Part shown: in pieces, positions 15,775-56,972 of the stretch
How the letters are laid out: each line of letters opens with the position of its first letter
How positions within the stretch are numbered: position 1 is the stretch's first letter
Assembly: GCA_963675495.1 (NCBI GenBank)
Contig: OY776215.1
Location: forward strand, 1,664,001 to 1,728,000
Length of the DNA: 64,000 bases
Direction: 5' to 3'
DNA from: an uncultured Methanolobus sp.
Lineage (GTDB): Archaea > Halobacteriota > Methanosarcinia > Methanosarcinales > Methanosarcinaceae
Notes under the pieces: model-generated
Told to the model about the DNA's origin: nothing
The model's input: only the letters and a program-made list of their open reading frames with translations
The model's database searches: none
Made by a program: the position numbers and the translations under genes

Positions 15775-15784
15775 AGGAAAACTT

Positions 15785-36773: not shown

Positions 36774-36779
36774 GCTCAT
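36135..36779 (-). CDS. mtbC: Dimethylamine corrinoid protein, copy 1
   Basis: [15 protein letters not shown], upstream of mtbB. Confidence 0.93.
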
Positions 36780-37577: not shown

Positions 37578-38624
37578 TTAATCACCTCTCAATGATTCCA
37601 TTTCGCCAGTGTCCTCAGAGAACATTATAGTACTACCTCCAAGACACAAAGCACCTCCAAGCAGAATGGTCCATCCAGGAACATCTCCGAAGAAGAGGAA
37701 GATGAATATTACAGCGAAGAGACCATAGAGGTTTCCAATACCCTGACCTCTTCCTACACCGATCAGTGGGAAAGACTTGTACCAGGTAACGTAACAGAAA
37801 CCAAATGTAATACCTGCAAAGATCAGTACGAGAAGTGTCATTGGTTCGAATGCGAGAAGTGCATACTTGAACATTGGGAATCCTACGATAGCAAGCACAG
37901 GAACAATAATGATCCACCAGATAATGTTCTCACCAACAAATCTCAGTGTAAGACCCACATCAGGTTCTGCGATGTCAAGACCTTTACCTGCGACAGCACC
38001 TTCTATACCCCAGCCTGCTGCGGCCATAAGTCCACCAAGGTAACCGATCCATGCAACATTGCCACTTCCAAGTTCTGAAAGCACACCGCCACCAAATATA
38101 GTGATACCACCAAGAATGATGAAACCAATACCAAGGAAAGCACGTTTGGATATCTTTTCACCATACCACTTTTGAGCAAGTATAGAGCCTATTACAGGGT
38201 ACATAAGTGCTGCAACGGCTGCGAAAGCACCACCTACAAAACCCATAGCAATAAATGATCCCAATATAGCCATAGGACCACCGAAAATAGATGCAAGGAA
38301 GAACCATTTTGAACATGGATGGAATTCTTTTAGAGTCCTCTTCATTTCTCCGAACTTACCAAGAGCACCATTCCAGACCATAAGGGCCAGCATAACAGTT
38401 AACGCATTGAATGCAGTGATAAGTACAGCTACTATAACCAATGCCACTCCGTCACCACTTGTGGCGGCTACTTCACCATACATTTCATCAAAAGGATTAA
38501 GTACCCATACTACGGTACCAGGGATATACCACAGACCCCAAAGAACCGCACAAAACAAAGCCCACATGTAACCGAATTTTACTCGGCGCTTATGCTCCTG
38601 CGTTTTTAATAATTTCAAATCCAC
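37578..38624 (-). CDS. mttP: Trimethylamine permease (DMT superfamily)
   Basis: About 10 TM helices, follows mttBC; GTG start with GGAGG. Confidence 0.85.
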   Translation of the reverse strand: MDLKLLKTQEHKRRVKFGYMWALFCAVLWGLWYIPGTVVWVLNPFDEMYGEVAATSGDGVALVIVAVLITAFNALTVMLALMVWNGALGKFGEMKRTLKEFHPCSKWFFLASIFGGPMAILGSFIAMGFVGGAFAAVAALMYPVIGSILAQKWYGEKISKRAFLGIGFIILGGITIFGGGVLSELGSGNVAWIGYLGGLMAAAGWGIEGAVAGKGLDIAEPDVGLTLRFVGENIIWWIIIVPVLAIVGFPMFKYALLAFEPMTLLVLIFAGITFGFCYVTWYKSFPLIGVGRGQGIGNLYGLFAVIFIFLFFGDVPGWTILLGGALCLGGSTIMFSEDTGEMESLRGD

Positions 38625-38908: not shown

Positions 38909-39556
38909 TCAGAAGAGTGCGTTCAATTTTGCAACTACATCAGTTGCATTCTCGCCGTAGACATCTGAACCGATTTTGGTTGCCCAGTCCTGAGTTACAG
39001 GAGCGCCGCCAACCATTGTCTTCAGTGAGTCGCGAATACCTGCTTCTTTAAGCTGCTCCTCGATCTGGATCTGGCTGACCATTGTAGTGGTCATAAGAGC
39101 AGATGAAGCAACTACATCAGCACCTACTTCCTTTGCCTTCTCAACATAAGCTGCGATTGCTACATCTCTTCCGAGATCAACAACTTTGAAACCAGCGATC
39201 TTGAGCATTGTTGCAACAATGTCCTTACCGATTGAGTGGATATCTCCCTCGATTGTGCCGATAACAATTGTTCCCTTGTTTGCTGCTTCTGCACCCTTTG
39301 CTTCAAGTATTGGAGTAAGTACAGCTACTCCTGCGCTCATTGCCTCTGATGCTGCAATAACATGAGGAAGGAATAATGTGCCTGCCTCGAACTGATCTCC
39401 TACTTCGTTCATAGCTGCGGTGAAACCGTCCTGGATAAGGTCTACAGGATCTACATCTGCATCAATACCTTCCTGAGCTGCTTCTGCTGCTGCTTCATTA
39501 TCAAAATCTAAAATCGCTGCTTTTGCTTTTGCGATAATCTCTTCTTTAGTTGCCAT
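38909..39556 (-). CDS. mttC: Trimethylamine corrinoid protein
   Basis: GDIHSIGKDIV, SALMTTT; directly downstream of mttB. Confidence 0.93.
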   Translation of the reverse strand: MATKEEIIAKAKAAILDFDNEAAAEAAQEGIDADVDPVDLIQDGFTAAMNEVGDQFEAGTLFLPHVIAASEAMSAGVAVLTPILEAKGAEAANKGTIVIGTIEGDIHSIGKDIVATMLKIAGFKVVDLGRDVAIAAYVEKAKEVGADVVASSALMTTTMVSQIQIEEQLKEAGIRDSLKTMVGGAPVTQDWATKIGSDVYGENATDVVAKLNALF

Positions 39557-39575: not shown

Positions 39576-41066
39576 TTACATGCTGGCTCTGAATGCCTTG
39601 TCAGCTTTCTCTACAACTGCCTGCATGTCTTTGAGCAGATCAGCGTCTATTGGTGTTACTTCGTGGTTCTTCATGATGTCAACGACTTTTTCATGAGCAA
39701 CCGTTGCGATATCCTTTGAGCCTGCCATTTCCCAGTCACCGAACATCAGTCTGTCAATGAGCATTGGGCTGGATGGAAGGTCAATGTTCTGCCTTGTAGT
39801 CTTGTGTGCAAGGAAGTTGTTTCCTATACCAACCTGGTCTATGGATTCAACTGCCATTGTCTCTTCGTCAACAGGAATTCCCTGCATTGCCTTCTTGGTC
39901 ATTGAGATCATGTCGTTGTCAAGAACGAGCTGCTCAAGTGAGAAGGTCATACCGAGCTCAAGCATACCTGCACCGTAAAGGGTGTTTGCACCAGACAATG
40001 CGGGGAAAAGAGTAGTCATTGTTTTCTCATGGCCAGCCTGGCCATCAGGTATCTTGGCATCAGCCTACGAGCCTGCTACAAATGTAGGAAGACCATAATA
40101 CTGACCGAGTTTTGCAACAGCTGCACTGATAAGTGCAAGTTCAGGAGAACCTACAGGAGCAGTACCTTTCTTCAGATCGAATGTTGTGGTAGAACTACCA
40201 TACCATACTGGTGCACCTGGCTGAACCAGCTGTGCGAGTACGATACCTGAGATTACTTCAGCGTTGTGTGTTACAAGTGTACCTGCAAGGTGAACTGGAG
40301 ATGAACCGCCAGCCATTGCCATACTGAGTACGTTAACAGGCGTACCGAACTTTGCGCCCTTTATGATAACCTGACATGCGTTCTCACTGAGTTCCAGTGG
40401 GCTTGTAGGACAGAGCAATGTTGAGAATATAGGCTTCTTACGTGCTTCCTCATCATCCCCACCGAAGTATGCGGTAGCGATTCCCTGATAGTAATCTACA
40501 TTCTCGCCTACAGGGTCAATGTGGTGGAAGTGCTTTGTTGTGTTCATCAGTGGAGTCAGTGTCTCGTGGACATCCTGTGCTCCCTTTCCTGCCCAGTCCC
40601 TTGCGGAAACTGCAAGTGAATAGTAGTTGATATTCTCTGCCCAGTCACAGAGCTTTGCTGTGTCTGCTACGTCCTTTTCTGTCGAGTCAACAGTTGAATA
40701 TTTACCAGGTGCATCATAGTTGCACATCTTGACACCGGTGCCGAAACAGGTCCAGTGTACCTTTCCTTTGTGTTCCTGCTTGACGTTGTTCTTCTTGTCA
40801 CGGCCCCAGAGGACGAACTTAGAAGGAGCGTCACGAAGTGCTCTGTTAACTACAAACTCAGGAATCTTAACGATCTGTGTTTTTTCATCGACTAAACAGC
40901 CACCTTCTTTGAAGATAGCCCTTGCTTCAGCATCTGATACCTGGATACCAGTGTTAATGAAGACATCCATTGTAGCGTAGTGAAGTGATCTGAGATCATC
41001 CTCAGAGAAAAGCTCCAGACTAACGCCTTCTAATGGTCTTCTACCTGGGTAATATTGTTTTACCAT
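39576..41066 (-). CDS. mttB: Trimethylamine:corrinoid methyltransferase, pyrrolysine-containing (TAG at 40065-40067, codon 334)
   Basis: [24 protein letters not shown]; 496 aa across amber; GGAGG RBS before ATG 41066. Confidence 0.96.
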
Positions 41067-41674
41067 TTTCTTAACCTCCAATTATAATTCAATTCCAAGA
41101 TCTATCAAAGATAATCTTGAAGATGTGAACATGCATTGTAGCAATATGTTCTTGCTGAAGTGTAGAATGAAATAGTATATAAAGGTGACCTATGGAACTA
41201 GTATATATATTTTCGCATTTGCTGCAATTTCGTCATGCAATATAAAGATATCGTACCAAACACAAATAAAAAATAAACATGAAAACGGTACTGAAGTTGT
41301 TTTTGCTAAAACACACTGAAAGAATATTACTAAGTACATTCATAGTAAGTGGGCAGTACTATATAAAAGTTACTATTGGCGAGTTGACAGAATATAATAT
41401 GATACCATATATAAAATTGTGGTTAGCATACAAATTAAACAAGATATACAAAGAATTAGGCTTTTTGGTAATAACTTCAGGAAATGAATTTTAATAGTCG
41501 TACATAAATCCTTTTAATTTACATTATGAACACATACAAATTAAATTAAGTATGCAGCCTATTGACATTGTTTTTTGTGTTCACAGTGTTAAAAAACAAC
41601 CACAAAATATATGTAGCTTGTTTTTGCAACAATCCAACAAACAAATAATACAATAAAAAAGGAGTTTACAAAAA

Positions 41675-43609
41675 ATGAGTTACAGCCTTGGCATAGATGC
41701 AGGAGGAACGTACACAGATGCAGTTCTCCTAAGAGATGATGATGAAACCATACTTCAATCCAGCAAAGCATTGACAAGCTACCCTAATCCACTGGAAGGG
41801 ATAAAACAATCTATTGACGGATTAGACCCCATATGTCTCCAAGATGTGAAAGTTGTGTCTGTTTCAACTACACTTTCCACAAACAGCATCCTTGAAGGTA
41901 CCGGCTCCCCCGTTGCCATGATACTTATTGGAAATTATGATATTAAACAAGAACTTCCAACCCAACATTTTTTAAAGGTTAGCGGAGGTCATGACCATAA
42001 TGGTATTGAAACCGATGATCTGGACCTCGAATCTATCAAGGAATTTACATTAAAGGTCAAGGACAAGGTTTCAGCTTTTGCAATATCTTCATACTTTAGT
42101 GTGAGAAATCACGACCATGAACTAAAAGCAAAAGAAATGATAATAGAACTTACAGGCCGTCCTGTAGTCTGCAGCTATGAACTCTCTCAAGATCTCGGAG
42201 CTTTTGAAAGAGCTGTGACAGCATTCCTGAATGCACAATTGATACCTGTAACTGAGAGATTCATGACAACCGTTGAAGCGGAAATAAAATCAAGAGGAAT
42301 TGATGCAAAGATATTCATGCTTAAATGTGATGGATCTGTCATTGGTATCCAGAGTGCCCTCAAAAAACCAATTGAATCCATTTTTTCAGGACCTGCTGGA
42401 AGTCTTGTAGGGGCTTCATTCCTTGCAAAAAGAGAAACATGTGCCGTCATAGATGTAGGAGGTACCAGCACAGATATTTCAGTGATACACAATGGAGTTC
42501 CTGATATGAGTGATTCTGGTGCTGTTGTTGGTGGATGGAAAACCAGGGTCAAAGCCATACGTATGGAAACATCGGCAATGGGAGGAGATAGCCATGTGTG
42601 GGTAAAAGGTAAAGATATCAACATCGGTCCCAGAAGAGTCATCCCTCTGTGCAGAGCTGCTGTACTCTACCCGGATTTCCTTGAACAACTCAAAACAAAT
42701 CCCATCCCTTCAAAGATACGCATGGGTATCAATTATCAGCCGACAAAATTCTACCTGAGAACGGATTATGAGGAACTGGAGGCCAGCAAAGAGGAAAAAG
42801 AAATACTTAATGCTATAAAAAAGAGTCCTACATCAACTACTGAGATATTCAACCGGATAAAAAAATACCCTTCCAGCACCATCTTGGATAGCCTCATACA
42901 GAAAAGACTGTTGCAACCTATAGGTTTCACACTCACTGATGCACTACATGTACTTGGCGAGTACACGGAAAGAAATGTCGAAGCCGCCAATACAGGTGCT
43001 GATATGCTTTCTTCAATTGTAGATATGGATAGGTATGAATTTGCCAGACACATCAAAAAAGAATTTGCAAAAAACATGGCATGTGACCTCATATCATTCT
43101 TCCTTGAAGGAGTGGACAAAAACGAAATAAGGAAGATATTTGATATCCAATCACCTGCAAAGTTCAAAGTAGATGTTCCTATTGTATTAATAGGAGGGCC
43201 TGTAACTGCTTTTGTAGAAGACCTACAAGAAATACTGAATGCAGAAATTATCCTTCCTGAATATTCCAGTGTAGGAAACGCTGCCGGTGCACTAGCTGCA
43301 AAAGGCATCCGAAGATTTGAAGTGCTTATCAGACCTGCTTCAATGGCAGCTCCTGATTGGGAATTCCTTGTGTTCTCTGAAAATGGAAAAAGTAATTTCT
43401 ATGAATATCAGGAAGCTCTTGACTATGCGGTTAGCATGGGGGAGAAGACAGTTCTTAACTATATGAAAGATGCCGGACTTGACTCTAATCACATAAAAAT
43501 AGATGTTAAAAAAGAGGAAATTATTCCATTGGGATGGAAAACACCAATGGAAACAAAGCTTGTAGTGCTTGGGGTTGGTAACAGGAACACTGAACAGGAT
43601 TGTTGTTAA
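41675..43609 (+). CDS. Hydantoinase/oxoprolinase A-family ATPase (paralogue 1)
   Basis: LGIDAGGTYTD, STTLSTN, SGPAGS, IDVGGTSTD, GGDS, GNAAGA. Confidence 0.88.
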   Translation: MSYSLGIDAGGTYTDAVLLRDDDETILQSSKALTSYPNPLEGIKQSIDGLDPICLQDVKVVSVSTTLSTNSILEGTGSPVAMILIGNYDIKQELPTQHFLKVSGGHDHNGIETDDLDLESIKEFTLKVKDKVSAFAISSYFSVRNHDHELKAKEMIIELTGRPVVCSYELSQDLGAFERAVTAFLNAQLIPVTERFMTTVEAEIKSRGIDAKIFMLKCDGSVIGIQSALKKPIESIFSGPAGSLVGASFLAKRETCAVIDVGGTSTDISVIHNGVPDMSDSGAVVGGWKTRVKAIRMETSAMGGDSHVWVKGKDINIGPRRVIPLCRAAVLYPDFLEQLKTNPIPSKIRMGINYQPTKFYLRTDYEELEASKEEKEILNAIKKSPTSTTEIFNRIKKYPSSTILDSLIQKRLLQPIGFTLTDALHVLGEYTERNVEAANTGADMLSSIVDMDRYEFARHIKKEFAKNMACDLISFFLEGVDKNEIRKIFDIQSPAKFKVDVPIVLIGGPVTAFVEDLQEILNAEIILPEYSSVGNAAGALAAKGIRRFEVLIRPASMAAPDWEFLVFSENGKSNFYEYQEALDYAVSMGEKTVLNYMKDAGLDSNHIKIDVKKEEIIPLGWKTPMETKLVVLGVGNRNTEQDCC

Positions 43610-46176
43610 GAGCCTAACTCCTTTGTAATAGAAGAAATGGCTATGAGGACATCCTGTCCTCCCCAATCACTAATTTTAAACTTTGACTTGACTGGAACAA
43701 GGATTCCTTCCTTACTCACCAGAGGAATCTCACAAGTGGATGATTTACCTGACATTATCTCATCTAGATTTGAAAGAACATCATCTTCCCAGTTTTCAGG
43801 ATAGAGCATCAAAAAATCTTTCATTACAAGGTCTTGTTCAGAATATTTCAGATTTTGGACCAAAGCTTCATTTACATGAAGGACTCTCCCCTCGATATCC
43901 ATAATAAATACAATCTCATCAAGGGCGTCAAGCAGGGAATTAAGATTATTTTTGCTTTTCTGGGAACCTGGATCACTTTTCATTCTGGAGATCATGATTC
44001 CTACCTGATTTGCAACTGTTTCTATAAGATTCCTTGAATTTGCCGGTATCTCAAGTTCGGTATGCGAACCAAGGACAATAGCAGCAACCATTTTGTCATT
44101 AAATTTAACAGGTATGAATGCCATTGCCTGTAGCCCTTCAGAATCACGGCCCTCGCCATGCACCATCGTGTTGATCTCAGCGAAATATTTGTATACCGGA
44201 TAACCTGTGGTGAAAAGACGTGCTATTAGTGTGTTCGAACCGAAATGAGATACTGAAGCCACAAATTTTTCAGAAAGATTTCGATAAGCAGCTGCATTGA
44301 AATCACCAGTTACCTGGTCAATCATATAAATGATACCGGAATCTATTGCTTTTGCCTCTAGTGTAAAATCAAGCAGCTTCTCAAATGTTTCCTCAAGACC
44401 TGCGGTTTCCCCCAGAACATTGTCAAGATCACACTCGATACGCATGAAATTATTGGCATGCTTGCGTTCAGTTATATCGACAATAATACCCTGAAGGTAA
44501 TCCACAATACCATTCTCATCGTAGTGAAGCACAGTCCTTTCGTCAACCCATCTCACTTCACCTGCTTTTGTCAATATCCTGTATTCCTGGCTGAAATCAG
44601 AAAAACCTTCCCTTGAAGCTCTTTCTACTTCCGTTCTCACACTTTGAAGGTCAGAAGGATGAATAATATCACCATAAATAATCTTGCCTGAAATAAAATC
44701 TGAAACATCATAGCCAAATTGCTCTATGTTCTCAGAAACAAATTCCACAGGCCAATCCTGTTCAGGCTTCCAGAGAAATACTATTGCAGGGCTTGAACTC
44801 ATGATGGATTCAAGCATCCGACGCATCCTGAGTGCTTCAGAAAGAACATCCTTTGTTTTCTTGTATTGCACAAGTTTCCACATACCTTCCATTAGGAGGG
44901 TTAACTGGCGGGCATCGGATTCATCATAATCCAATATTTTGTTAGCTATCCCGGCAACTGCAACTACCTGATCATTTTCAAATACAGGAATCGTTATGTG
45001 GCGAAAGATTTTTTCATTTATTCCTGGATATATATCATTAACATGTTCGGAATCATAATCCTTATTGACTATAACAGCTTTGCGTTCACGTATAGCTTCG
45101 CCCCAAAAACCTGTAGATCTTACAGGATGCATAAAGGGTTCTTCACCTAAATAAGAATTAAGATCGCTAGGCCACTGATATGTTTCAAGCATATTCTTAT
45201 CTTCATTCAAAAATTCAAGATAACCTATTTTGCTATTGGTAAGCTCTGCAGCATTCTGGATGGCATACTCAGCAATCTCATTCAACGGGGAATCCTGCAT
45301 CTGATGTAGTTTCAAAAGAGCTTCAAGGCGCATCTCATTCAGATGTATGGTTTCCTGGGCTTTTTTGCTGGATGCAACATCTTCCATTATTCCAATGCCC
45401 CCCAACAAAGACCCATCGTCATCCATCACAGGAGAAAAACTTGCTTTGATCATCATTACTTTCCCACTTATACTGGAAACATACTCACCTTCATAGTAGC
45501 TAGGATTTCCCAGGAAAACAACATCGATAGCACTTCGCAAATTTTCATCATTTAACGATGAAAGAACATTGAAACCAATTATCTTCTCCGCAGGTGCACC
45601 AATTACATCCGAACAGCTCTTATTACAGTGGGTAATAATGCCATTTTCGTCAAAATAGAGGAGACCCACAGGAGACCTTTCAATTATTATCTGATATTTT
45701 TGTCCGGTTTCCAGCAGTTGCCTCTCAGTTTTCTCAAGCTCTGTATTATCAATAAGTATACCCTGGAAATGAGTGATGTTTCCTCCTGCATCCCTATTTA
45801 TAAATGACCTTTCGGTCACCCAGCGAACTTCACCTGATTTTGTCAGTATGCGGTAATTAAGAGAAAAATAAGAGGTGTTCTTTTTCTCAGAATGTTTCTT
45901 CACCTCTAGAAGGATCCTGTCAATATCATCAGGATGGACAATATCACCATAAACCAACTTCCCTGTTGTGAAATCTTCAGGCGTATATCCTAGTCGAGTA
46001 ATGTTTCCAGATATAGATTCAACGGGCCATTTACCTTCTGCATTCCAAAGAAAAGAGATAACCGGACTACTATTGTAAACAGCTTCCAGTTTTTTGTCAA
46101 CAGGATCAAGAGCAGACAACTTTGCCCCATACGTTTTATTTTTACCCGAATCTTTAACAACTGAAATATTAATCAC
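43606..46176 (-). CDS. Multi-sensor protein (PAS-PAS-GAF-PAS-GAF-PAS) with no recognisable output domain
   Basis: Two similar WPVE...YGDI.HP.D...YRILTK.GEVRWV PAS repeats, two GAF-like blocks, terminal PAS; ends in TAA with no H-box or HATPase. Confidence 0.8.
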   Translation of the reverse strand: MINISVVKDSGKNKTYGAKLSALDPVDKKLEAVYNSSPVISFLWNAEGKWPVESISGNITRLGYTPEDFTTGKLVYGDIVHPDDIDRILLEVKKHSEKKNTSYFSLNYRILTKSGEVRWVTERSFINRDAGGNITHFQGILIDNTELEKTERQLLETGQKYQIIIERSPVGLLYFDENGIITHCNKSCSDVIGAPAEKIIGFNVLSSLNDENLRSAIDVVFLGNPSYYEGEYVSSISGKVMMIKASFSPVMDDDGSLLGGIGIMEDVASSKKAQETIHLNEMRLEALLKLHQMQDSPLNEIAEYAIQNAAELTNSKIGYLEFLNEDKNMLETYQWPSDLNSYLGEEPFMHPVRSTGFWGEAIRERKAVIVNKDYDSEHVNDIYPGINEKIFRHITIPVFENDQVVAVAGIANKILDYDESDARQLTLLMEGMWKLVQYKKTKDVLSEALRMRRMLESIMSSSPAIVFLWKPEQDWPVEFVSENIEQFGYDVSDFISGKIIYGDIIHPSDLQSVRTEVERASREGFSDFSQEYRILTKAGEVRWVDERTVLHYDENGIVDYLQGIIVDITERKHANNFMRIECDLDNVLGETAGLEETFEKLLDFTLEAKAIDSGIIYMIDQVTGDFNAAAYRNLSEKFVASVSHFGSNTLIARLFTTGYPVYKYFAEINTMVHGEGRDSEGLQAMAFIPVKFNDKMVAAIVLGSHTELEIPANSRNLIETVANQVGIMISRMKSDPGSQKSKNNLNSLLDALDEIVFIMDIEGRVLHVNEALVQNLKYSEQDLVMKDFLMLYPENWEDDVLSNLDEIMSGKSSTCEIPLVSKEGILVPVKSKFKISDWGGQDVLIAISSITKELGS

Positions 46177-46714
46177 TTCCTAAATAGAATCAATAAATTT
46201 GAATAACTTTTTTAATGGAATAAAATTCATAATCTTGTGTAACTTGCTCTAATGTTAGTTATTATTCATATTTTATCATGGGAATCTTGTATTGGTATAT
46301 AATAATACCGGCGAGAGTTTTTAATCAATGGTACATAAGAGTTGTGATTAAAGACAAAAAATGCAACTATTCACTAAAAAAAAGACATATAATGCTTATT
46401 TTCAAATGAAAGTTCATGCACCTACTCACAAAATATATATGCACATTGCTTTAGTTTCAATCCTGAACAAAGCCACACCCAATTTATTAAGTTGTTTTTT
46501 TATGCATATATATCTTTCTTCTTAATTTTAACAACAATGTGTCAGATGAGTAAAGCTATAAACAGCAGCATCAGGTACATTCGTGCTATAAATGAGGTAA
46601 TATACAGGCATATTGTGATGCAAAAATATAAATAGGAGATGTACCATAATAGAAAATAGAGATTAAACAAGTTGCCTTGATTTAAATTGGGTCTATATCC
46701 TGGCAGATAATCTC

Positions 46715-46789
46715 TGTAGAAATTCTACCTCTTTCAATTGCTCCTTTGTTTTACCTCCACTAAAACAGAAAGGAGCAAATATTTCTACA
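46715..46789. promoter_or_regulatory. Nested stem-loop in the leader of the hydantoinase-2/3 operon
   Basis: TTGCTCCTTT-GTTTTA / TAAAAC-AG-AAAGGAGCAA stem, loop CCTCCAC, outer TGTAGAAAT/ATTTCTACA. Confidence 0.55.
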
Positions 46790-46941
46790 AACCAATCCGT
46801 TTTTTGAGGGTTATAAATGACTTTATCAAAAACAAGATGTATTGAAATTTTTAGTTTTATGGGTACCCTACCCTTAAAGACCACATCTACTGTTTTCAAG
46901 AATAATATCCTAAATGCTGAAAGTTCCCTGGAGGGTCTCTG

Positions 46942-48897
46942 ATGCATTACAGTCTTGGAATAGATGCCGGAGGCACCTATACTGATGTTGCGATAATCAG
47001 GGATTCAGATGGGAGCATAGTAAAATCCAACAAATCGCTTACAACTTATCCCGACCTGTTAATAGGTATCAGGAACACTTTGGATCAACTGGACCCTCAC
47101 TATCTTGAAAACGTTCACTATGTATCAGTATCAACTACTCTGGCAACTAACAGCGTTCTGGAGAAAACTGGTTATCCAGTAGGGCTAATCCTTGTTAACG
47201 ATGCAGACATTCCAAACAGAGCAAAGATAGAGAATTTTGTTCTTGTAAAAGGAGGGCACAATAGTGCAGGAAATGAAGTATGCCCCCTTGATATAGATTC
47301 TGTACGGAACTTCGTTCTCAGGATCAAAAATAAAGTTTCTGCTTTTGCAATATCATCATATTTCAGCGTGCGCAATCCTGAACACGAATTGAAGATAAAG
47401 GAACTAATAACCGAACTTACAGGTCTTCCGGTAGTTTGCGGACATGAACTGTCACAGGACCTTGGAGCATACGAAAGAGGTATCACAGCCTACTTGAATG
47501 CTCAATTGATCCCCATAGCCAGCCAGTTCATGGAATCAGTCACTTCTGAGATAAAAAGAAGGAATATAAACGCAAAAATAATGATGCTCAAGTGTGATGG
47601 CTCTGTGGTCGCTATAAATGAAGCCTTGAAAAAACCGATAGAATCAGTGTTTTCAGGACCTGCAGCAAGTCTTGTGGGAGCAGCATATCTTTCAGGAAAT
47701 GAAGATTGCGCCGTCATAGATGTGGGTGGAACAAGTACAGACGTTTCACTGATACATCGTGGAATACCACAACTTAGTGAAGCAGGTGCTGTTGTCGGGG
47801 GCTGGCAGACGAAGGTCAAAGCAATACGTATGGAAACATCTGCAATGGGTGGGGACAGTCATGTGTGGGTGAGGAACCACGTCATCAACATTGGCCCAAG
47901 AAGGGTTATACCACTATGCTTAGCTGCTGTGGAATATCCCGAGATCGTTGAAAAGCTCAAACAAAATCAGGTAATCTTACGTAACCAGATAGGTGAGAAC
48001 CTGCAACCTACTAAGTTCTTCATCAGGTCAGGACTTGAAGCTTCAGATATCAGTTCTGCAGAAGAAGAATTACTATCAAGGATTGGAGATAGGCCACTAA
48101 CTGTCAGTGAAATATACTGGAATGAGAACAGGCTTCCAAATCCAGGAACACTTGACCTGTTGATACAAAAAAGGCTTATCAAGACCATCGGATTTACTCC
48201 CACCGATGCCCTGCATGTTCTTCAAGAATATACGCAGTGGAACAAAGAGGCATCTTTACTTGGAGCAAGTATACTGGCTGCACTTGCCGGAATTGATGAA
48301 GACGAGCTTTGCCTCCAAATAAAAAATGATGTAGCCAGGAATATGGCATTGAATTTAGTATCTTTTTTACTTGAGGGCATAAGTAAAGAAGAGATAGAAA
48401 AGGTCCTTATGGGCAAATTCTTTGCGAGGTTTAAGTCGGAACTGCCTGTTGTTCTGCTTGGGGGACCTGTCGGTGCCTATTCAAAAGAGCTCGCCAGATT
48501 CGTAGATGCACAAATACTTGTACCAGATAATTGTAGTGTGGGAAATGCCGTCGGTGCGGTTGCAGGAAAAGGCTCCAAAAAACTGGAAGTCCTTATAAAA
48601 GCAAATTATACAGAATCAAAATATAATCTGAAAACATCATCTTTTGTAATTTTTTACCCTGGAGGAAGGGAAGAGGTCTCATCGTACCACGAAGCCCTGG
48701 AATTTGGAGAAGAGATCGGACCTAAACTCATTATGAAGTACATGACCGATTCAGGAATGGACAGCGATGGAGTAAACATTGATATGCATCGGAATGATAT
48801 TATTATACACGATGGGGGACTTCCTGTGGAAACAAGACTCAGTTTTTCGGGTACAGGTCAGGCAAGGAAGAATAGGGCAACAATGGAGGTAGATTAA
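46942..48897 (+). CDS. Hydantoinase/oxoprolinase A-family ATPase (paralogue 2)
   Basis: Same motifs as paralogue 1 (GIDAGGTYTD, IDVGGTSTD, GNAVGA). Confidence 0.88.
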   Translation: MHYSLGIDAGGTYTDVAIIRDSDGSIVKSNKSLTTYPDLLIGIRNTLDQLDPHYLENVHYVSVSTTLATNSVLEKTGYPVGLILVNDADIPNRAKIENFVLVKGGHNSAGNEVCPLDIDSVRNFVLRIKNKVSAFAISSYFSVRNPEHELKIKELITELTGLPVVCGHELSQDLGAYERGITAYLNAQLIPIASQFMESVTSEIKRRNINAKIMMLKCDGSVVAINEALKKPIESVFSGPAASLVGAAYLSGNEDCAVIDVGGTSTDVSLIHRGIPQLSEAGAVVGGWQTKVKAIRMETSAMGGDSHVWVRNHVINIGPRRVIPLCLAAVEYPEIVEKLKQNQVILRNQIGENLQPTKFFIRSGLEASDISSAEEELLSRIGDRPLTVSEIYWNENRLPNPGTLDLLIQKRLIKTIGFTPTDALHVLQEYTQWNKEASLLGASILAALAGIDEDELCLQIKNDVARNMALNLVSFLLEGISKEEIEKVLMGKFFARFKSELPVVLLGGPVGAYSKELARFVDAQILVPDNCSVGNAVGAVAGKGSKKLEVLIKANYTESKYNLKTSSFVIFYPGGREEVSSYHEALEFGEEIGPKLIMKYMTDSGMDSDGVNIDMHRNDIIIHDGGLPVETRLSFSGTGQARKNRATMEVD

Positions 48898-50823
48898 ATG
48901 CAATATAGTCTAGGAATCGATGCAGGAGGAACTTATACTGATGCGGTGATAATAAGGAATGAAGACAGAAAAGTTATCGACTCGAACAAGGCACTCACAA
49001 CCTATCCTGATCTGCTGACCGGTATAGAGAATGCTATGGACGGACTGGACAACAAATACCTGAGTGACATTAAACTTGTATCAGTATCCACAACTCTTGC
49101 CACCAATACAATACTTGAGAAAACAGGGTATCCTGTAGCTCTCATCCTTATAGGAAAACACACCCTGCCTGCAAATATGCCTATCACTGACTACGTTGTA
49201 GTAAACGGAGGACACAATGTAGTAGGAACCGAAGACGAAGTGCTTGATATTGAAACTGTAAAAGAATATGCCCTGAAAATGAAAGACAGAGTGTCCGCAT
49301 TTGCTATTTCCTCATATTTCAGTATCCGAAACCCTGAACATGAACTGAAAGTAAAGAACCTTCTTAATGAGCTGACAGGACTCCCGATAGTCTGCGGTCA
49401 TGAGCTGTCGCAAGATCTTGGAGCCTATGAAAGGGGTGTTACTGCATACCTTAATGCACAACTTCTCCCCATAGCGGACCAGTTCATAAATGCTATTATT
49501 ACCGATATTGAAAAAAGAGGGATCGATGCAAAACTAATGATGCTCAAATGTGATGGCTCTGTCATCGGAATCCATGAAGCCATGGAAAGACCAATAGAAT
49601 CAATATTTTCCGGGCCTGCTGCCAGTCTCATGGGTGCATCCTTCCTCTCTAAAAATGATACATGTGCTGTTATTGATGTAGGTGGAACAAGCACCGACGT
49701 TTCACTAAATCACAACGGTCTGCCAGAACTTGTTGATACTGGAGCCGTGGTAGGTGGATGGCATACAAAGGTCAAAGCCATACGTATGGAAACTTCCGCA
49801 ATGGGTGGAGATAGCCACATATGGATAAAGAACCGCAATATCAATATCGGGCCTCGAAGGGTGATACCACTTTGCCTTGCTGCTGTAAAATATCCCGGGT
49901 TCATGGAACAACTCAAATCAGGTAGAACACCTTCAAGGGTTCCACTTGCAGAGAATATCCAGCCCACAAAGTTCTTTGTAAGAACAGGAAAGGAAGCACC
50001 AAAACTTAGTGAATTTGAAAAAAAGCTTCTTGGAACAATTGGCGCAGAACCCGTTTCAATTAATGATATCTTCTGGAATATGAAAACTCCGGTATCTGCA
50101 GACCAGATAGATGCATTGATACAGAAAAGACTTGTCCAGGCCATCGGATTTACCCCCACCGATGTACTGCATGTGCTTGGAGAGTACACAGTATGGAACC
50201 GTGAAGCTTCACTTACAGGTGCAAAGATACTTGCAAGGCTTACATCCATGGATGAAAATGAGCTTTGTGTCCACATCAAAAAAGAAGTAGCTATCAACAT
50301 GGCGCTGGACCTTATGAGTTTCATGTTCAAAGGTGTTGAAAAATCTGAGATCGAGAAAATAATCCGTGGTGAGTTCTTCTCACAGTTCAAAGTGAATGTA
50401 CCGGTGATCTTACTTGGAGGACCTGTTCATGCCTATGTTGAAGAGCTCAACAAGCTGATAGATGCAACTATTATAGTTCCCGAACATGCAGATGTGGGAA
50501 ATGCAGTTGGAGCACTTGTTGGAAAAGGTGTCAAAACCGTAGATGTACTTATTAAGGCATTCTACCAGAAAACGAAGAGGACTATTCTAGTATTCTCTCC
50601 AATGGAAAGAAAGGAGTTCTCACTTTACTCAGAAGCTCTGGAATACGCAACGCAGCGTGGGGAGAAACTAATACACGAATATATGGAAAACTCGGGTATC
50701 AAATCAGAAGACGTAAATATCGAAATCAAGAGAGAAGACATCACAATGATGGAAGAGGGCGGAGCTCCTGTTGAAACAAAGCTCGTGTTCCTTGGAACAG
50801 GAATTCCACAAACGGAAAAATGA
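48898..50823 (+). CDS. Hydantoinase/oxoprolinase A-family ATPase (paralogue 3)
   Basis: Same motifs; ATG directly follows TAA of paralogue 2. Confidence 0.88.
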   Translation: MQYSLGIDAGGTYTDAVIIRNEDRKVIDSNKALTTYPDLLTGIENAMDGLDNKYLSDIKLVSVSTTLATNTILEKTGYPVALILIGKHTLPANMPITDYVVVNGGHNVVGTEDEVLDIETVKEYALKMKDRVSAFAISSYFSIRNPEHELKVKNLLNELTGLPIVCGHELSQDLGAYERGVTAYLNAQLLPIADQFINAIITDIEKRGIDAKLMMLKCDGSVIGIHEAMERPIESIFSGPAASLMGASFLSKNDTCAVIDVGGTSTDVSLNHNGLPELVDTGAVVGGWHTKVKAIRMETSAMGGDSHIWIKNRNINIGPRRVIPLCLAAVKYPGFMEQLKSGRTPSRVPLAENIQPTKFFVRTGKEAPKLSEFEKKLLGTIGAEPVSINDIFWNMKTPVSADQIDALIQKRLVQAIGFTPTDVLHVLGEYTVWNREASLTGAKILARLTSMDENELCVHIKKEVAINMALDLMSFMFKGVEKSEIEKIIRGEFFSQFKVNVPVILLGGPVHAYVEELNKLIDATIIVPEHADVGNAVGALVGKGVKTVDVLIKAFYQKTKRTILVFSPMERKEFSLYSEALEYATQRGEKLIHEYMENSGIKSEDVNIEIKREDITMMEEGGAPVETKLVFLGTGIPQTEK

Positions 50824-50996
50824 AAATACATCAACTTTCATTTTTCCTTTACTATATAATTTGCGTTTAAATGAATGATAAAAATTTATTAAACGGCACC
50901 AAGCAATAAATATCGTATTTTGCACATGCTGGTGTGCGTAATATATAAATAGTATTAATTAACATATGGAAGTGGGTTCAAAACTGCAATCATCAT

Positions 50997-51068
50997 GGAA
51001 ATCAGATCAGGTTGATCGAATGGACTCTAAATCCGTTCAGTCGGGTTAAATTCCCGGGGTTTCCGCCA
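50997..51068 (+). tRNA. pylT: tRNA-Pyl (anticodon CUA, amber-decoding)
   Basis: 72 nt GGAAATC...GGTTTCCGCCA; acceptor stem with one G-U pair, GATC D-stem with 5-nt loop, 6-bp anticodon stem, CTA at 51027-51029, 3-nt variable loop, no TTC in T loop, encoded CCA. Confidence 0.95.
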
Positions 51069-51077
51069 ATCTGTGTT

Positions 51078-51122
51078 TCATTGTGTGAGAAATCACATAA
51101 TGACGAAATCTTTTTTGTTTTC
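51078..51122 (+). terminator. GNRA-capped hairpin plus T-tract after pylT (hairpin duplicated at 52690-52715)
   Basis: TCATTGTGTGA-GAAA-TCACATAATGA followed by TCTTTTTTGTTTTC. Confidence 0.6.
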
Positions 51123-51254
51123 TTTTAATTCCTTATCTTAGATGTTAATTGAATCAACTAAGTCTTAGCACTCATAAATGAATATGATATTTCATTGAAC
51201 TTTTTCAGATACAGTTCTCCACATAAAAACTGAGTGACAAGAGAAATAAAAACA

Positions 51255-51301
51255 TTCTCCGGGAGAAGGCACAATTCATCAGAAGGATTCAGCCCGGAGA
51301 A
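51255..51301. repeat. TCTCCGGG...CCCGGAGA hairpin element (also 52807-52852 and 63449-63498)
   Basis: Three related inverted-repeat elements, each just 3' of a minus-strand stop codon. Confidence 0.65.
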
Positions 51302-51319
51302 ATAAATGACTTTTTTGTA

Positions 51320-52612
51320 TCATTCTTCCAATTGGAAAAATGTCTTGAATATCTCGATAGAATCCAGAAAGTCCTGTTTGCCCATTAGCTCCCTGGTTGA
51401 ATGCATTGCCAACATCGGCAATCCCGCATCTACCACATGAACAGGCATATATTTGCTGAGCAATGGACCCAGGGTCGTTCCTCCCGGTTGATCCGAATGA
51501 TTTACAAATTTCTGGAATTTCACACCGGCCTTGTCACACACCTGCTGAAAAGCTGCAATGGTCTCTACTTCCGATGCGTAGGAACGATTGCCACTCATCT
51601 TGATGGTTATCCCTTTGTTCATTACAGGCTTGTTAGTAATATCATTCTTTTCACCGTAATTGGGATGCAATCCATGTGCGCCATCGGCTGAGATCACGAA
51701 GGTGTCCATCAATTGACGGGTGAATTGTTGTTCCGTTTTCATCGTTGACATATGGATCCGCTCCAAAATAGTTCTAAGCATCACAGAGTCAGCGCCTTGT
51801 TTGGTCATGGAGCCGATCTCTTCATTGTCCATGAATGCCACCATATTGATTCCGCCTTTATTTTTTGATCCTACAAGAGCTTCCATAGCAGCATACACCA
51901 TGGACAGATCATCGATTCTCGGACAAGAGATGAATTCCTCCCTGGCTCCCACCAACATACCTTCTTCACTACAATAGATACTCAAGTCCATATCCAAAAT
52001 ATTCTCACGATTAACACCAGCTTCCTTAGCAACCAGATCCAACAGATAATTATCCTTTATCTCATCTTCGATCAACTGGGTTAAGAGAGGTTGCATTTCT
52101 TTTTGCACTTTGATCTCCACACCGTTATTGACCTCGCGGTTCATATGGATAGCCAGATTGGGGATAATGAGTATCGGTTTTCGAAAATCCAAATGAATAA
52201 CTTCAGGCTTCAACACTTCATCGGACCTCACCGCTATCCTTCCGGCAATGGACAAGGGCCGGTCGAACCATGTATTCAGAATAGGTCCTCCGTAACGCTC
52301 CACATTCAGTGTCAGCATTCCTTCACTGTTAACCTCAGGACTGGGTTTTATCCTGAATCCAGGATTATCCGTATGCGCAGCGATTATTTTCACACCTGTT
52401 GTCAGATATTGACCGCTTCCGATAGCAAAGCCCACCAACATGGAAGGATAGGGTGTCAGATAGTATTTCCCTGACGCATTCAACGTCCATGGCTCATTCA
52501 TATTCAATTCCAAAAAACCTTCAGCATCCAGACGCTCCCTTATGGTATCCACTGTCTGAACTGCTGTAGTCGCTTTTTCCATAAATCCAAAAAAATCACT
52601 GATATAATCCAT
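51320..52612 (-). CDS. M18 family (aspartyl) aminopeptidase
   Basis: AAHTDNP, YGGPILNTWFDRPLS, NLAIH, DNEEIGS, SADGAHG, AMHSTRE. Confidence 0.92.
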   Translation of the reverse strand: MDYISDFFGFMEKATTAVQTVDTIRERLDAEGFLELNMNEPWTLNASGKYYLTPYPSMLVGFAIGSGQYLTTGVKIIAAHTDNPGFRIKPSPEVNSEGMLTLNVERYGGPILNTWFDRPLSIAGRIAVRSDEVLKPEVIHLDFRKPILIIPNLAIHMNREVNNGVEIKVQKEMQPLLTQLIEDEIKDNYLLDLVAKEAGVNRENILDMDLSIYCSEEGMLVGAREEFISCPRIDDLSMVYAAMEALVGSKNKGGINMVAFMDNEEIGSMTKQGADSVMLRTILERIHMSTMKTEQQFTRQLMDTFVISADGAHGLHPNYGEKNDITNKPVMNKGITIKMSGNRSYASEVETIAAFQQVCDKAGVKFQKFVNHSDQPGGTTLGPLLSKYMPVHVVDAGLPMLAMHSTRELMGKQDFLDSIEIFKTFFQLEE

Positions 52613-55802: not shown

Positions 55803-56582
55803 ATGAATGGTTCACTAATAGACATAATTCTCAATTCGGAAAAACGGAAAAATGTTCTGCTTCTTTTGATGGAAGGAGAAAAAAGCCGCGAAGACATAAA
55901 AACAAGTCTTAATGTTACTTCTACAGCTCTTATTCCCCAGATAAAGAAACTCAAGGAACATGGTCTTGTCATTCAGAATGGGGATTATTACATCTTAACC
56001 AATATGGGGAAAGTACTTGTGGCAAACATGCTGCCTCTTTTAAGTGCAGTAGATGTTTTTGAAGAGAACAGTAACTATTGGTTGAATCGTGATCTTAACG
56101 GCATTCCTGAATCTATGCTTAAACGATTCGGTGAACTCGGAAACTGTGTTATAATTGAACCTGACCTTAACTATCTTTTTGAATTTCCTAAAGAATTTAC
56201 CGAAAACATAAGTAAATCCAGTTATGTTATGGCTTTTAATGCTTATTTCCATCCTGAGTATCCAGCCCTTTACTCAAGTCTTGCTGAAAAGGGAATCGAT
56301 TTTTCCCTTGTCACGACAAATTCTGTCCATGAAAGAATGGAAAAAGATTATTCAGAAGACGTCAGGAAATTCATGAGCTTTGAAAATACTGAGATGCTTG
56401 TGTCAAATGAGAACACCGGTCTGGCAACGTTAGTTAGTACTGATAGATTCCTGTTTCTCTGTTTCTTTAATAAACAAGGACAATATGACCATACCATTCT
56501 AATGAGCTTTGACAGCAATGCACTACAATGGAGTAAAGAACTATTCTCTTATTTTAAAGATAAAGCGGAAAATATCTCTTAA
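55803..56582 (+). CDS. Winged-helix (ArsR-like) transcription regulator with DUF1724-like domain (Msr-type)
   Basis: SEKRKNVLLLL...PQIKKL...Y.LT..G N-terminus, C-terminal AL.W..ELF.YF typical of Methanosarcinales regulators. Confidence 0.8.
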   Translation: MNGSLIDIILNSEKRKNVLLLLMEGEKSREDIKTSLNVTSTALIPQIKKLKEHGLVIQNGDYYILTNMGKVLVANMLPLLSAVDVFEENSNYWLNRDLNGIPESMLKRFGELGNCVIIEPDLNYLFEFPKEFTENISKSSYVMAFNAYFHPEYPALYSSLAEKGIDFSLVTTNSVHERMEKDYSEDVRKFMSFENTEMLVSNENTGLATLVSTDRFLFLCFFNKQGQYDHTILMSFDSNALQWSKELFSYFKDKAENIS

Positions 56583-56841: not shown

Positions 56842-56972
56842 GGCTCTGTAGAAAAGTTAATTAAATCGACATCAATCAAGCAAAACTGCCAAGTATTTTC
56901 AATGTCGTGTAATACATTTTAAATTATTGATTATTTTATTTTTGTCTGAATACCGAGGATTTTTACAGAGCC
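56842..56972. mobile_element. MITE-like element, 131 bp
   Basis: Termini GGCTCTGTAGAAA / TTTTTACAGAGCC are inverted repeats (12/13); AT-rich non-coding interior; no clear TSD. Confidence 0.6.

Follow-up and report, generated by a model that had tools for sequence, protein, structure and literature searches.

The locus and its gene family

The locus lies in a 64,000-nucleotide stretch of the genome of an uncultured Methanolobus (genome positions 1664001-1728000; hereafter the window), and carries three intact paralogous genes for HyuA-like ATPases together with trimethylamine methyltransferase genes, a sensor-type gene and pylT (Table 1). Open reading frames, Pfam matches and ARAGORN predictions all agree with the sizes, ASKHA motifs and gene layout given in an earlier note written from the DNA letters. 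Paralogue 1 is divergent from mttB, which scores 718.8 bits against TIGR02369 (cut-off 525) when translated with TAG as lysine, and beyond mttB are mttC and then the EamA-family gene. Paralogues 2 and 3 are 7-10 kb away from mttC and abut at a TAA-ATG junction with no gap. The PAS/GAF gene converges on paralogue 1, their 3' ends sharing four bases; its product contains four PAS and two GAF stretches, and the Pfam scan finds no kinase or other recognisable output domain in it. The tRNA-Pyl gene is the only copy found by ARAGORN genome-wide, and is approximately 25 kb from pylS, whose C-terminal match is at genome position 1740133. The window also holds mtmBC and mtbBC (twice) in addition to mttBC.

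Table 1. Features of the locus (positions within the window)
Feature	Position	Strand	Description
EamA-family transporter, downstream of mttC	37578..38624	-	Pfam EamA
mttC, cognate corrinoid protein	38909..39556	-	B12-binding and B12-binding_2; TIGR02370, 268.9 bits
mttB, trimethylamine methyltransferase	39576..41081	-	TIGR02369; Pfam MTTB; one in-frame TAG
Paralogue 1, HyuB-less HyuA-like ATPase	41675..43609	+	644 aa, intact; Hydant_A_N and Hydantoinase_A
PAS/GAF sensor-type protein	43606..46176	-	856 aa; Pfam PAS_3, PAS, PAS_9, PAS_4, GAF_2, GAF_3 only
Paralogue 2	46942..48897	+	651 aa, intact; leads tandem pair
Paralogue 3	48898..50823	+	641 aa, intact; closes tandem pair
tRNA-Pyl (CUA), pylT	50997..51068	+	ARAGORN on window and whole genome

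Each of the three paralogues matches Hydant_A_N (E 5e-30 to 1e-31) and Hydantoinase_A (E 6e-30 to 3e-33), and they share 53-56% pairwise identity. The phosphate motifs LGIDAGGTYTD (residues 5-15) and VIDVGGTSTD (258-267) are present in all three, and both of these and a GGD motif are without variation across 63 family sequences, down to 31% identity. The AF2 model of paralogue 1 (pLDDT 92.2) aligns over its full length with HyuA-type subunits at 14-18% identity (TMq 0.58-0.65), the matches being NMHase 9h03, acetone carboxylase beta 5svc_B, Apc 5l9w and caprolactamase 6yra_A. An orthologue of paralogue 1 with 85% identity occupies the same position in Methanolobus bombayensis (L011), where the arrangement of the PAS/GAF gene is also found. 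Paralogue 2 groups with one member of a Methanosarcina tandem pair (L012; SH-aLRT 95), and its best named relatives include a Methanosarcina acetivorans 'hydantoinase' (61% identity).

These proteins belong to a large and distinct family of HyuB-less, HyuA-like ASKHA ATPases that is widespread in methanogens and bacteria. The Methanolobus genome encodes nine paralogues at six independent loci, and five other genera of Methanosarcinaceae have 4-9 copies each, with further tandem pairs among them, so that this group represents an expansion of the family. The earlier note was correct that the window contains neither HyuB nor RamA. PF02538 matches the genome just once, in a fused 1242-aa frame approximately 50 kb upstream, and none of 80 related loci has a HyuB match. 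Three RamA-like matches (genome positions 874692, 1743843 and 2800215) fall outside of the window. RamA/RACo genes co-occur with the family both in the Methanolobus genome and in operons of bacteria, often adjacent to a family member, and the family is thus not a stand-in for RamA/RACo.

Association with corrinoid methyltransferase systems

Family genes are enriched near corrinoid-protein genes in the Methanolobus genome itself: three of the six independent loci have one within 3 kb, a zone that covers just 3.2% of the genome (binomial p 6e-4). The neighbours on the corrinoid side are mttBC, mtaCB with RamA and CobW, and a fused Mts-like gene with Cpn60 and RamA. The other three loci have no methyltransferase-system gene nearby; one adjoins mcrA and has a sister copy at a distance of 5 kb, one precedes a SAM methyltransferase gene, and one is beside a PAS/GAF kinase gene.

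In public genomes, at least one of MttB, a corrinoid protein, a pterin-binding MT2 and RACo is encoded at 23 of the 80 loci, a count limited to the DNA present around each locus, with some contigs being short. These loci span the Bacillota, Chloroflexota, Thermodesulfobacteriota, Pseudomonadota and Methanomassiliicoccales, and eleven of them (L019, L021, L023, L028, L029, L030, L032, L052, L056, L086 and L087) have a same-strand, operon-like arrangement. No marker gene is found at 52 of the 80 loci, which are mostly from Alphaproteobacteria and include some on short contigs, and a nearby methyltransferase gene is absent from seven of the ten loci in other Methanosarcinaceae genomes (L009, L010, L012-L015 and L017); the Methanosarcina and Methanohalophilus tandem pairs are surrounded by housekeeping genes. 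EamA clusters recur beside bacterial family members in MttB operons (L019, L032, L033, L034, L046, L050 and L056). In strain DCMF, the glycine betaine cluster MtgC-MtgB-MtgC-MtgB-?-MtgA is described as enclosing a 668-aa 'unknown / N-methylhydantoinase A', which the proteomics of the same report lists as more abundant on glycine betaine (log2 fold change -7.2; PMC9768040).

Phylogenetic profiles point the same way. Among 301 Alphaproteobacteria genomes the family occurs in 19, all of which encode MttB, as compared with 60 of 301 overall (Fisher 3.6e-15), and 17 of the 19 encode DUF1638, present in 58 of 301 overall (1e-11); these statistics ignore shared ancestry. The family is not universal among genomes with corrinoid systems, being present in only 19 of the 60 MttB-bearing Alphaproteobacteria and not found, in the Halobacteriota sample, in non-Methanosarcinaceae with 3-14 corrinoid cap domains (e.g. 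G033 with 14 and G011 with 7), with the caveat that both large searches scored three first-look candidates per genome and may miss copies.

DUF1638 is a candidate partner. It is found as an N-terminal domain on all nine long (892-950 aa) family representatives, is fused to the family at five of the 80 loci, is a direct neighbour at L023, L027 and L086, and is one gene away at L056, where it adjoins the corrinoid gene. All five family-bearing genomes tested outside the Alphaproteobacteria profile encode it, and within that profile it is found in almost the same genomes as MttB (55 genomes are common to the 58 and the 60). The Methanolobus genome has 6-7 copies, none within the window. The domain is approximately 160 aa long and contains three invariant cysteines and a near-invariant histidine (15 sequences). 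Its model gives generic two-lobed alpha/beta matches only (best Foldseek E 5e-4, TM 0.32; best VIA Z 9.3, to a designed protein), and the structure comparison reveals no likeness to HyuB. A published genetic screen links DUF1638 to B12-dependent methyl transfer, with P. inhibens DUF1638 mutants reported as co-fit with a split B12 methionine synthase and a RamA-like gene, and as rescued by methionine (10.1101/192971); in R. pomeroyi, DUF1638 is reported to be induced on N-osmolytes (PMC12478193).

Complex prediction, which the earlier note had suggested, lends weak support to the pairing of paralogue 1 with MttC. The predicted complex scores 0.54 (runs of 0.51, 0.54 and 0.58) against 0.00 for the best of three controls, with at least 94% contact agreement between runs and a partner pLDDT of at least 80; of 80 solved complexes, 58 reach the score mark used, as do 2 of 110 mismatched pairs, yet scores of 0.60 or below include just seven of those 80 and both mismatches.

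Possible roles of the ATPases

Gene neighbourhoods, fusions and phylogenetic profiles all link the family to corrinoid systems, and its association with corrinoid methyltransferases is well supported. Of the roles put forward in the earlier note, that of an activase or chaperone for the methyltransferase-corrinoid pair is the best for these HyuB-less ASKHA proteins, and the family probably helps a B12-carrying protein rather than providing one enzyme per methylamine or repairing pyrrolysine. Most likely, a family member would hydrolyse ATP and thereby act on the corrinoid-carrying protein. It may open this protein, insert or swap the cofactor, or make the protein ready, either for reduction or after it. 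Its partner would be the cysteine-bearing DUF1638, and it would work beside the reductive activase RamA/RACo, not in its place. Paralogue 1 would serve the adjoining MttB/MttC pair, and the tandem pair of paralogues 2 and 3 is probably a heteromer. We infer the binding to corrinoid proteins, the use of ATP and the assignment of paralogues to systems, and judge the scheme as a whole to have an even chance of being correct.

It is credible, if unlikely, that the ATPases instead sense or set the methylotrophic (corrinoid or substrate) state and feed sensors or regulators that choose methyltransferase genes, without maintaining the enzyme. The 3' ends of family genes converge and overlap with those of PAS/GAF sensor genes at two loci in this genome (the window and L005), a third copy is near a sensor kinase and a FilR1-type regulator, and both sensor arrangements are kept in other Methanolobus (L011 and L017). 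The numerous copies that have no methyltransferase gene nearby are as compatible with a regulator as with a helper. In M. acetivorans, MA4395 and MA4396 are described as lying between mtaCB2 and msrDE (PMC11619418), and of four lines evolved to switch more rapidly from methanol to TMA, one is reported to carry an MA4396 frameshift and an amzR point mutation; however, in the available part of that source the two mutations are never separated and the authors credit amzR for the phenotype (10.1101/2025.05.05.652248). Against a regulatory role, the DCMF member is induced as strongly as the enzymes in the proteomics cited above (PMC9768040). The bacterial gene is within the structural operon, between those for MttB, the corrinoid protein, MT2 and RACo, and no protein scanned has a DNA-binding or signalling output domain.

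A two-part metabolic enzyme is distinctly unlikely. Here the HyuA-like part would phosphorylate a small molecule with ATP and DUF1638 would replace HyuB for the second step. The molecule would belong to methylated-amine or corrinoid metabolism; lactams, amides, N-methyl amides, and the precursors or degradation products of corrinoids are examples. All of the solved relatives are indeed subunits of two-part enzymes, HyuA-type proteins being the ATP-binding, substrate-phosphorylating subunits of, for example, acetone carboxylase and caprolactamase. The DUF1638 fusions and adjacencies mimic HyuA-HyuB fusions, its conserved cysteines and histidine are fit for catalysis or a metal site, and genes for dimethylglycine-dehydrogenase-type and aldehyde dehydrogenase proteins are found repeatedly around proteobacterial members. 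But the DUF1638 model does not resemble HyuB, and the substrates of the accompanied systems (TMA, methanol, methylsulfide-type and glycine betaine) are chemically unrelated; apart from the corrinoid protein and its activase, these systems have nothing in common. None of the present results hints at the release of methylamines from N-methyl amides, a further role listed in the earlier note.

Two more of the earlier note's proposals, one dedicated ATPase each for Mtm, Mtb and Mtt, or repair or salvage of pyrrolysine, are highly improbable: the match of three copies to the methylamine systems of the window is an artefact because the genome holds nine, some of them beside mtaCB, the mts-like cluster and mcrA, and a pyrrolysine role is unlikely because the MttB genes beside bacterial members lack its codon (16 of 19 MttB matches near family members have no in-frame TAG, a mid-gene TAG being found in the Methanolobus one only). 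The family is also common in bacteria, including Alphaproteobacteria, which are not known to use pyrrolysine, and it accompanies methanol and methylsulfide-type systems too. pylT comes directly after the tandem pair both here and in M. bombayensis, but not after the Methanosarcina or Methanohalophilus pairs, and this adjacency is explained by the methyltransferase link, because pyl genes usually sit near methylamine methyltransferase genes.

Comparison with known systems

The family has Pfam domains, a whole-chain fold and ASKHA phosphate motifs in common with the HyuA-type subunits of ATP-dependent hydantoinase, 5-oxoprolinase, caprolactamase, and acetone and acetophenone carboxylases. It differs from these in its low structural-alignment identity (just 14-18%), in sequence matches that span only about residues 100-320, in scores of 98-110 bits against NCBIfam equivalogs with cut-offs of 1000-1500, and in having no HyuB partner in its genome context or at the 80 related loci; a very long branch separates it from the genome's own canonical fused enzyme. 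GlmL/MutL, the accessory protein of glutamate mutase (PF13941) and likewise an ASKHA protein with a presumed role in maintaining a B12 enzyme, is weakly matched by the first 50-60 residues of paralogues 2 and 3 (31.7 and 33.9 bits, cut-off 27), but only about 55 of 450 profile positions are covered and the NCBIfam GlmL score of 26.6 is well below the cut-off (475).

Judged by their names, sizes and surrounding genes, M. acetivorans MA4395/MA4396, MA_RS04470, MA_RS23785 and MA_RS23790 and DCMF Ga0180325_114738 are of the same family. The M. acetivorans and DCMF hydantoinase/oxoprolinase genes are described near methyltransferase genes, with no function assigned in the available parts of those papers (PMC13729102, PMC11619418, PMC9768040), and the literature consulted remarks on the gene neighbourhood but gives no function for the family. 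The DUF1638 proteins of P. inhibens (PGA1_c13340) and R. pomeroyi (SPO2162) share its functional neighbourhood but are a different protein. Finally, although the family has no RACo_C_ter, RACo_middle or Fe-S domain in Pfam, it resembles RamA/RACo in comprising ATPases of the ASKHA superfamily that serve corrinoid methyltransferase systems from within the same operons.

Identity and setting of the three ATPases

The arrangement of the three paralogues, the PAS/GAF gene, mttB and the tRNA-Pyl gene is confirmed as the earlier note described it, and close relatives with names assign the organism to Methanolobus. The paralogues are 53-56% identical to one another in pairwise comparison, and paralogues 2 and 3 abut directly through a TAA-ATG junction. 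The mttB gene is divergent from paralogue 1, is of the pyrrolysine type with one in-frame TAG, scores 719 bits against TIGR02369 (cut-off 525), and is followed on its 3' side by mttC and then an EamA transporter gene. The convergence of a PAS/GAF gene on a family member, seen at paralogue 1, has a second instance in the same genome (L005), and both arrangements are kept in other Methanolobus genomes (L011, L017). Scanning of positions 41000-51400 with bacterial models, which are uninformative for an archaeon, gave 39 promoter-like sites against 31.2 expected and four terminator-like sites against 6.9 expected. Elsewhere in the window, the two mtbB/mtbC copies have near-identical Pfam scores (647.2 and 647.1 bits, over the first 358 aa of MtbB), which suggests a recent duplication inside the methylamine island, and an MttB-like stretch just downstream of a FilR1-type regulator gene matches the window's own MttB with 103 bits and may be a gene remnant.

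Coordinates and features of the ATPase genes and associated loci (L-handles are fetched loci)
Feature	Sequence	Coordinates	Strand	Remarks
Paralogue 1	window	41675-43609	+	open frame, 644 aa
PAS/GAF protein	window	43606-46176		856 aa; converges on paralogue 1, 3' overlap 4 bases; without kinase or other output domain
Paralogue 2	window	46942-48897	+	open frame, 651 aa
Paralogue 3	window	48898-50823	+	open frame, 641 aa
tRNA-Pyl (pylT)	window	50997-51068		3' of paralogue 3
mtbB/mtbC copies	window	35053-36779; 61213-62999		
FilR1-type regulator	window	55803-56582		
MttB-like stretch	window	56931-57260	+	~110 aa
pylS	genome	1740133-1740849		
Family copy beside mcr operon	L003, own genome	11567-13615 (genome 773656-775614)		sister of next row, SH-aLRT 100
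Family copy beside mcr operon	L003, own genome	6267-8303 (genome 768344-770302)		sister of previous row
EPSP synthase	L003, own genome	10255-11532		beside family member
Non-window copy A	genome			between mtaCB and MT2 gene; RamA, CobW nearby
Non-window copy B	genome			Mts-like cluster: sensor kinase, FilR1 regulator, fused corrinoid/URO-D protein, ATPase, Cpn60/TCP-1 chaperonin, MT2, RamA
Non-window copy C	genome			SAM methyltransferase overlaps and follows
Non-window copy D	genome			converges on PAS/GAF histidine kinase (next row)
PAS/GAF sensor and convergent family member	L005, own genome	6285-9074; 9052-10986		3' overlap 23 bases
pylT	L011, M. bombayensis	14331-14402		3' of tandem ATPase pair
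GHMP-type kinase and chorismate mutase	L014, Methanohalophilus	14754-15918		beside family member
Chorismate mutase	L022, Methanomethylophilaceae	9610-10035		beside family member
596-aa protein	L020, Bacillota	11708-13498		between ATPase and EutH-type transporter
DUF1638 protein	L096	1282-2061		

All three proteins contain the Pfam domains Hydant_A_N and Hydantoinase_A (E 1e-30 to 1e-33) and share the ASKHA phosphate motifs LGIDAGGTYTD and VIDVGGTSTD. An AlphaFold2 model of paralogue 1, built with 63 family sequences as input (pLDDT 92.2), resembles HyuA-type subunits over its full length (Foldseek E 1e-30 to 1e-23, TMq 0.58-0.65, 14-18% identity), the fold relatives being N-methylhydantoinase, acetone carboxylase, acetophenone carboxylase and caprolactamase, whereas alignment at the sequence level is limited to residues ~100-320. 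Because the phosphate-1, phosphate-2 and GGD motifs are invariant in the 63 sequences, at identities down to 31%, nucleotide binding has very probably been kept by the family.

The domains and fold are those expected of a canonical HyuA plus HyuB hydantoinase or oxoprolinase, but there is no HyuB subunit, and scores against NCBI curated models of characterised enzymes are about a tenth of the cut-offs, the best score among those for CapA, ApcA and ApcC being 98-110 bits to CapA against a cut-off of 1000. The sole match to HyuB (PF02538) in the genome lies inside a separate fused HyuA-HyuB frame of 1242 aa, the HyuA half of which is a distant canonical relative of the family, and a phmmer search of 80 related loci with the HyuB part of that frame returned no matches. 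A RamA/RACo identity is not supported: no RACo_C_ter, RACo_middle or Fe-S domain was found by Pfam in paralogues 1 to 3; genuine RamA-like genes with RACo domains are located elsewhere in the genome. The match to GlmL/MutL (PF13941, NF040745) is confined to the N-terminal 50-60 residues, and the NF040745 score is 26.6 against a cut-off of 475. A search of the ESM Atlas returned 'hydantoinase' clusters only.

Family extent, phylogeny and copy number

In a full scan of 1.84 billion cluster representatives, 950 clusters reach E 1e-30 or better. Many are full-length at 32-40% identity, and the named members include Methanomethylophilaceae and Chloroflexota. Among 401 genomes of the window's phylum, strong full-length matches are present in 55 of 55 Methanosarcinaceae (the genome studied here included) and in none of the 346 others. 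Several of the latter carry 3-14 corrinoid cap domains and no family member, so the family is not a universal requirement of corrinoid methyltransferases. A sister family of the same class (f4) encodes a protein of 561-565 aa in 16 of 16 genomes (E 1e-41 to 1e-51), but this matches only the N-terminal half of the ATPase, at 35% identity (L088-L090; genomes G391, G219 and G334), and corrinoid cap domains are absent from all 16 sampled genomes; we excluded it from the count as a separate subfamily.

A quick LG+G4 tree was built from 83 sequences, comprising 73 locus ORFs (at least 450 bits and 550 aa), the nine copies from this genome and the canonical fused enzyme as outgroup. All Methanosarcinaceae copies form one clade (SH-aLRT 100), which is nested among members from corrinoid operons, far from the outgroup. 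It is adjoined by Methanomassiliicoccales and MttB-linked Bacillota members with a support of only 81, and corrinoid-linked members are scattered elsewhere in the tree. The clade that holds paralogues 2 and 3 has ten sequences (SH-aLRT 99) and also includes the tandem pairs of Methanosarcina and Methanohalophilus; the pair is therefore old. Its age, and the fact that acetophenone carboxylase also contains pairs of HyuA-like paralogues (5l9w chains), suggest by analogy that paralogues 2 and 3 form a heteromer.

The earlier note had suggested, with the caution that the numbers might coincide by chance, a one-to-one match of the three ATPases with the Mtm, Mtb and Mtt systems, and this does not hold. 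Searched with paralogue 2, the 2.87-Mb genome as a whole yields nine clade members at 49-100% identity, and five other Methanosarcinaceae genera have seven, nine, six, five and four copies, with tandem pairs in several; the count of three is thus an effect of the window. The two sister copies beside the mcr operon lie 5 kb apart, one of them beginning ~190 bases 3' of mcrA, a link to methyl-coenzyme M reductase and not to a methyltransferase. Shikimate-pathway genes adjoin family members at three loci (L003, L014 and L022), which may be chance.

Of six independent loci in this genome, three have a corrinoid-protein gene within 3 kb; positions this near to one make up 3.2% of the genome (p 6e-4). 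At Methanosarcinaceae loci of other genomes a methyltransferase marker is absent from seven of ten, and housekeeping genes surround the tandem pairs of a Methanosarcina and a Methanohalophilus. That so many copies lie apart from enzyme genes would, like the PAS/GAF neighbours, fit a regulatory role for the ATPases, which we consider unlikely. Hydantoinase-family genes near methyltransferase genes of M. acetivorans are called putative regulators, of unknown role, in one study (PMC13729102).

Corrinoid methyltransferase neighbourhoods and DUF1638

The neighbourhoods were described from 80 loci of named public genomes, each taken with flanks of up to 10 kb. Their ORFs were clustered, Pfam gave names to the clusters that recurred, and profiles built from these clusters were run over all six frames. 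An MttB-superfamily methyltransferase, a corrinoid protein, a pterin-binding MT2 or a RACo activase, singly or in combination, is encoded at 23 of the 80. In 11 of these the markers share the strand of the ATPase and are arranged like an operon, as in one Syntrophomonadaceae genome (MttB-corrinoid-MttB-ATPase-MT2) and one Anaerolineales genome (MT2-MttB-corrinoid-DUF1638-MttB-ATPase-GntR-RACo-EamA-ATPase). The marker loci derive from Bacillota, Chloroflexota, Thermodesulfobacteriota, Pseudomonadota and Methanomassiliicoccales, and proteobacterial members are often near MttB plus dimethylglycine-dehydrogenase-type genes. Full-length matches to members inside MttB/corrinoid/MT2/RACo operons have 32-40% identity (E 1e-80 to 1e-118), and by these comparisons paralogues 1 to 3 are assigned to an uncharacterised HyuB-less HyuA-like family of corrinoid methyltransferase loci. 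In one Bacillota locus (L020) the neighbour is another type of B12 protein, a 596-aa product that Pfam matches only at a C-terminal B12-binding domain.

MttB genes next to bacterial members lack an in-frame TAG; overall, 16 of 19 matches have none, and a mid-gene TAG occurs only in the Methanolobus match. The pylT gene is present in single copy in this genome, ~25 kb from pylS and not directly upstream of it, and its position 3' of the tandem pair recurs in M. bombayensis but was not seen at the Methanosarcina or Methanohalophilus loci. The suggestion of a role in repair or salvage of pyrrolysine is rejected: the family is common alongside non-pyrrolysine MttB, and we read the adjacency of pylT as a by-product of the pyl genes lying in the methylamine island.

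A second association is with DUF1638. Nine of the best 150 representatives are ~270-290 residues longer than the rest, and all nine carry an N-terminal DUF1638. A profile of this N-terminal part detects DUF1638 at 12 of the 80 loci; five of these have it fused to the ATPase, and three more have it as the gene directly alongside. At a further locus (L056) it is one gene from the ATPase and adjoins a corrinoid gene; a corrinoid-DUF1638 fusion there is ruled out, these being two adjacent genes with a stop between them. The Methanolobus genome has seven PF07796 (DUF1638) matches, representing six or seven genes, none of them in the window. Three Cys residues are invariant and one His nearly so in 15 sequences from archaea and bacteria, L096 among them, within the motifs IAC, GLH..P, YGLCG and HDCI, a pattern that points to a putative metal or redox site. 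The DUF1638 model (pLDDT 92.8) has as its best Foldseek match the PrpR N-domain (E 5e-4, TM 0.32) and as its best VIA-wide matches designed P-loop-like proteins (Z 9.3), followed at Z 8-9 by sugar-binding proteins and Asp/hydantoin racemases. We take these resemblances as generic to two-lobed alpha/beta proteins and assign no family; CbiK ranks 24th in Foldseek (E 5.5e-3, TM 0.25), too weak a match to be informative.

The same association is evident in a phylogenetic profile. A sample of 301 Alphaproteobacteria contains 19 genomes with the ATPase family, 58 with DUF1638 and 60 with MttB; of the ATPase-bearing genomes, 19 of 19 have MttB and 17 of 19 have DUF1638, while DUF1638 and MttB occur together in 55 (Fisher p 3.6e-15, 1e-11 and 2e-50 respectively, values that ignore shared ancestry). 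DUF1638 is also present in all of five additional family-bearing genomes, which represent four phyla. By this profile the ATPase is an optional element nested in the set of MttB, DUF1638 and RamA-like genes. In Phaeobacter inhibens a DUF1638 gene shows co-fitness with a RamA-like gene and with all three parts of a split B12 methionine synthase. Methionine rescues its mutants, and its distribution tracks that of the RamA-like gene, the authors proposing no specific function in the available text (10.1101/192971). In Ruegeria pomeroyi, DUF1638 and RamA are reported to be up on N-osmolytes, where the MtgBCD glycine betaine system operates (PMC12478193).

A possible role for the ATPases

The idea of a helper of corrinoid methyltransferase systems, put forward in general form in the earlier note, is supported by gene neighbourhood, fusion, phylogenetic profile and published proteomics. 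In strain DCMF, a 668-aa 'unknown' protein resembling N-methylhydantoinase A is encoded in a glycine betaine methyltransferase cluster and is among those far more abundant on glycine betaine (LFC -7.2; PMC9768040). In M. acetivorans, MA4395/MA4396 lie between mtaCB2 and msrDE (PMC11619418), and one evolved line has a frameshift in MA4396, with no follow-up in the available text (10.1101/2025.05.05.652248). No paper found on hydantoinase together with Methanosarcina, TMA, pyrrolysine, MttB, corrinoid, MA4396 or DUF1638 assigns a function to the family, supplementary tables being outside the scope of the search.

The systems that the family accompanies have unrelated substrates and unrelated MT1 and MT2 folds, and what they share is a corrinoid protein and an activase; the corrinoid protein or its cofactor is therefore the most likely target of the ATPase, which would spend ATP on loading, exchange, opening or repair, with DUF1638 as its partner. 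RamA/RACo is present alongside, so the ATPase is not its replacement. A predicted complex of paralogue 1 with MttC lends weak support, scoring 0.54 (runs of 0.51, 0.54 and 0.58) against 0.00 for the best control. In calibration, 58 of 80 solved complexes and two of 110 mismatched pairs attain the mark, but with scores of 0.60 or under only seven of the 80 do so, along with both of the mismatched pairs. Agreement between the runs is at least 94% of contacts, and the partner has a pLDDT of at least 80.

We tentatively propose, as a possibility and no firmer than that, that corrinoid methyltransferase systems have, in addition to the methyltransferases and RamA/RACo, a third component hitherto unrecognised, made up of the ATPase and DUF1638. 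This would be a two-part ATP-driven machine on the HyuA/HyuB plan, with the Cys3-His protein DUF1638 as partner of the ATPase in place of HyuB, and its task would be loading, exchange or repair of the carrier-bound corrinoid. The four to nine copies of the Methanosarcinaceae would then be specialised, some as obligate tandem heteromers, and would set the speed at which a methyltransferase system is brought into service. That the ATPase is instead a small-molecule enzyme, with DUF1638 standing in for HyuB, we regard as improbable.

The 'hydantoinase/oxoprolinase' annotation of the family misleads metabolic reconstructions, and the family can be tested in M. acetivorans and in bacteria with transposon fitness libraries. 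Loaded, reduced corrinoid proteins are needed both in methylotrophic methanogenesis and when bacteria demethylate quaternary amines such as glycine betaine. A second ATP-using accessory of the kind proposed, conserved between Methanosarcina and bacteria of marine and gut habitats, could account for the sluggishness of reconstituted systems, the long lags in substrate switching and the role of DUF1638 in split methionine synthases, and would stand beside RamA/RACo, to our knowledge the only accepted maintenance factor.
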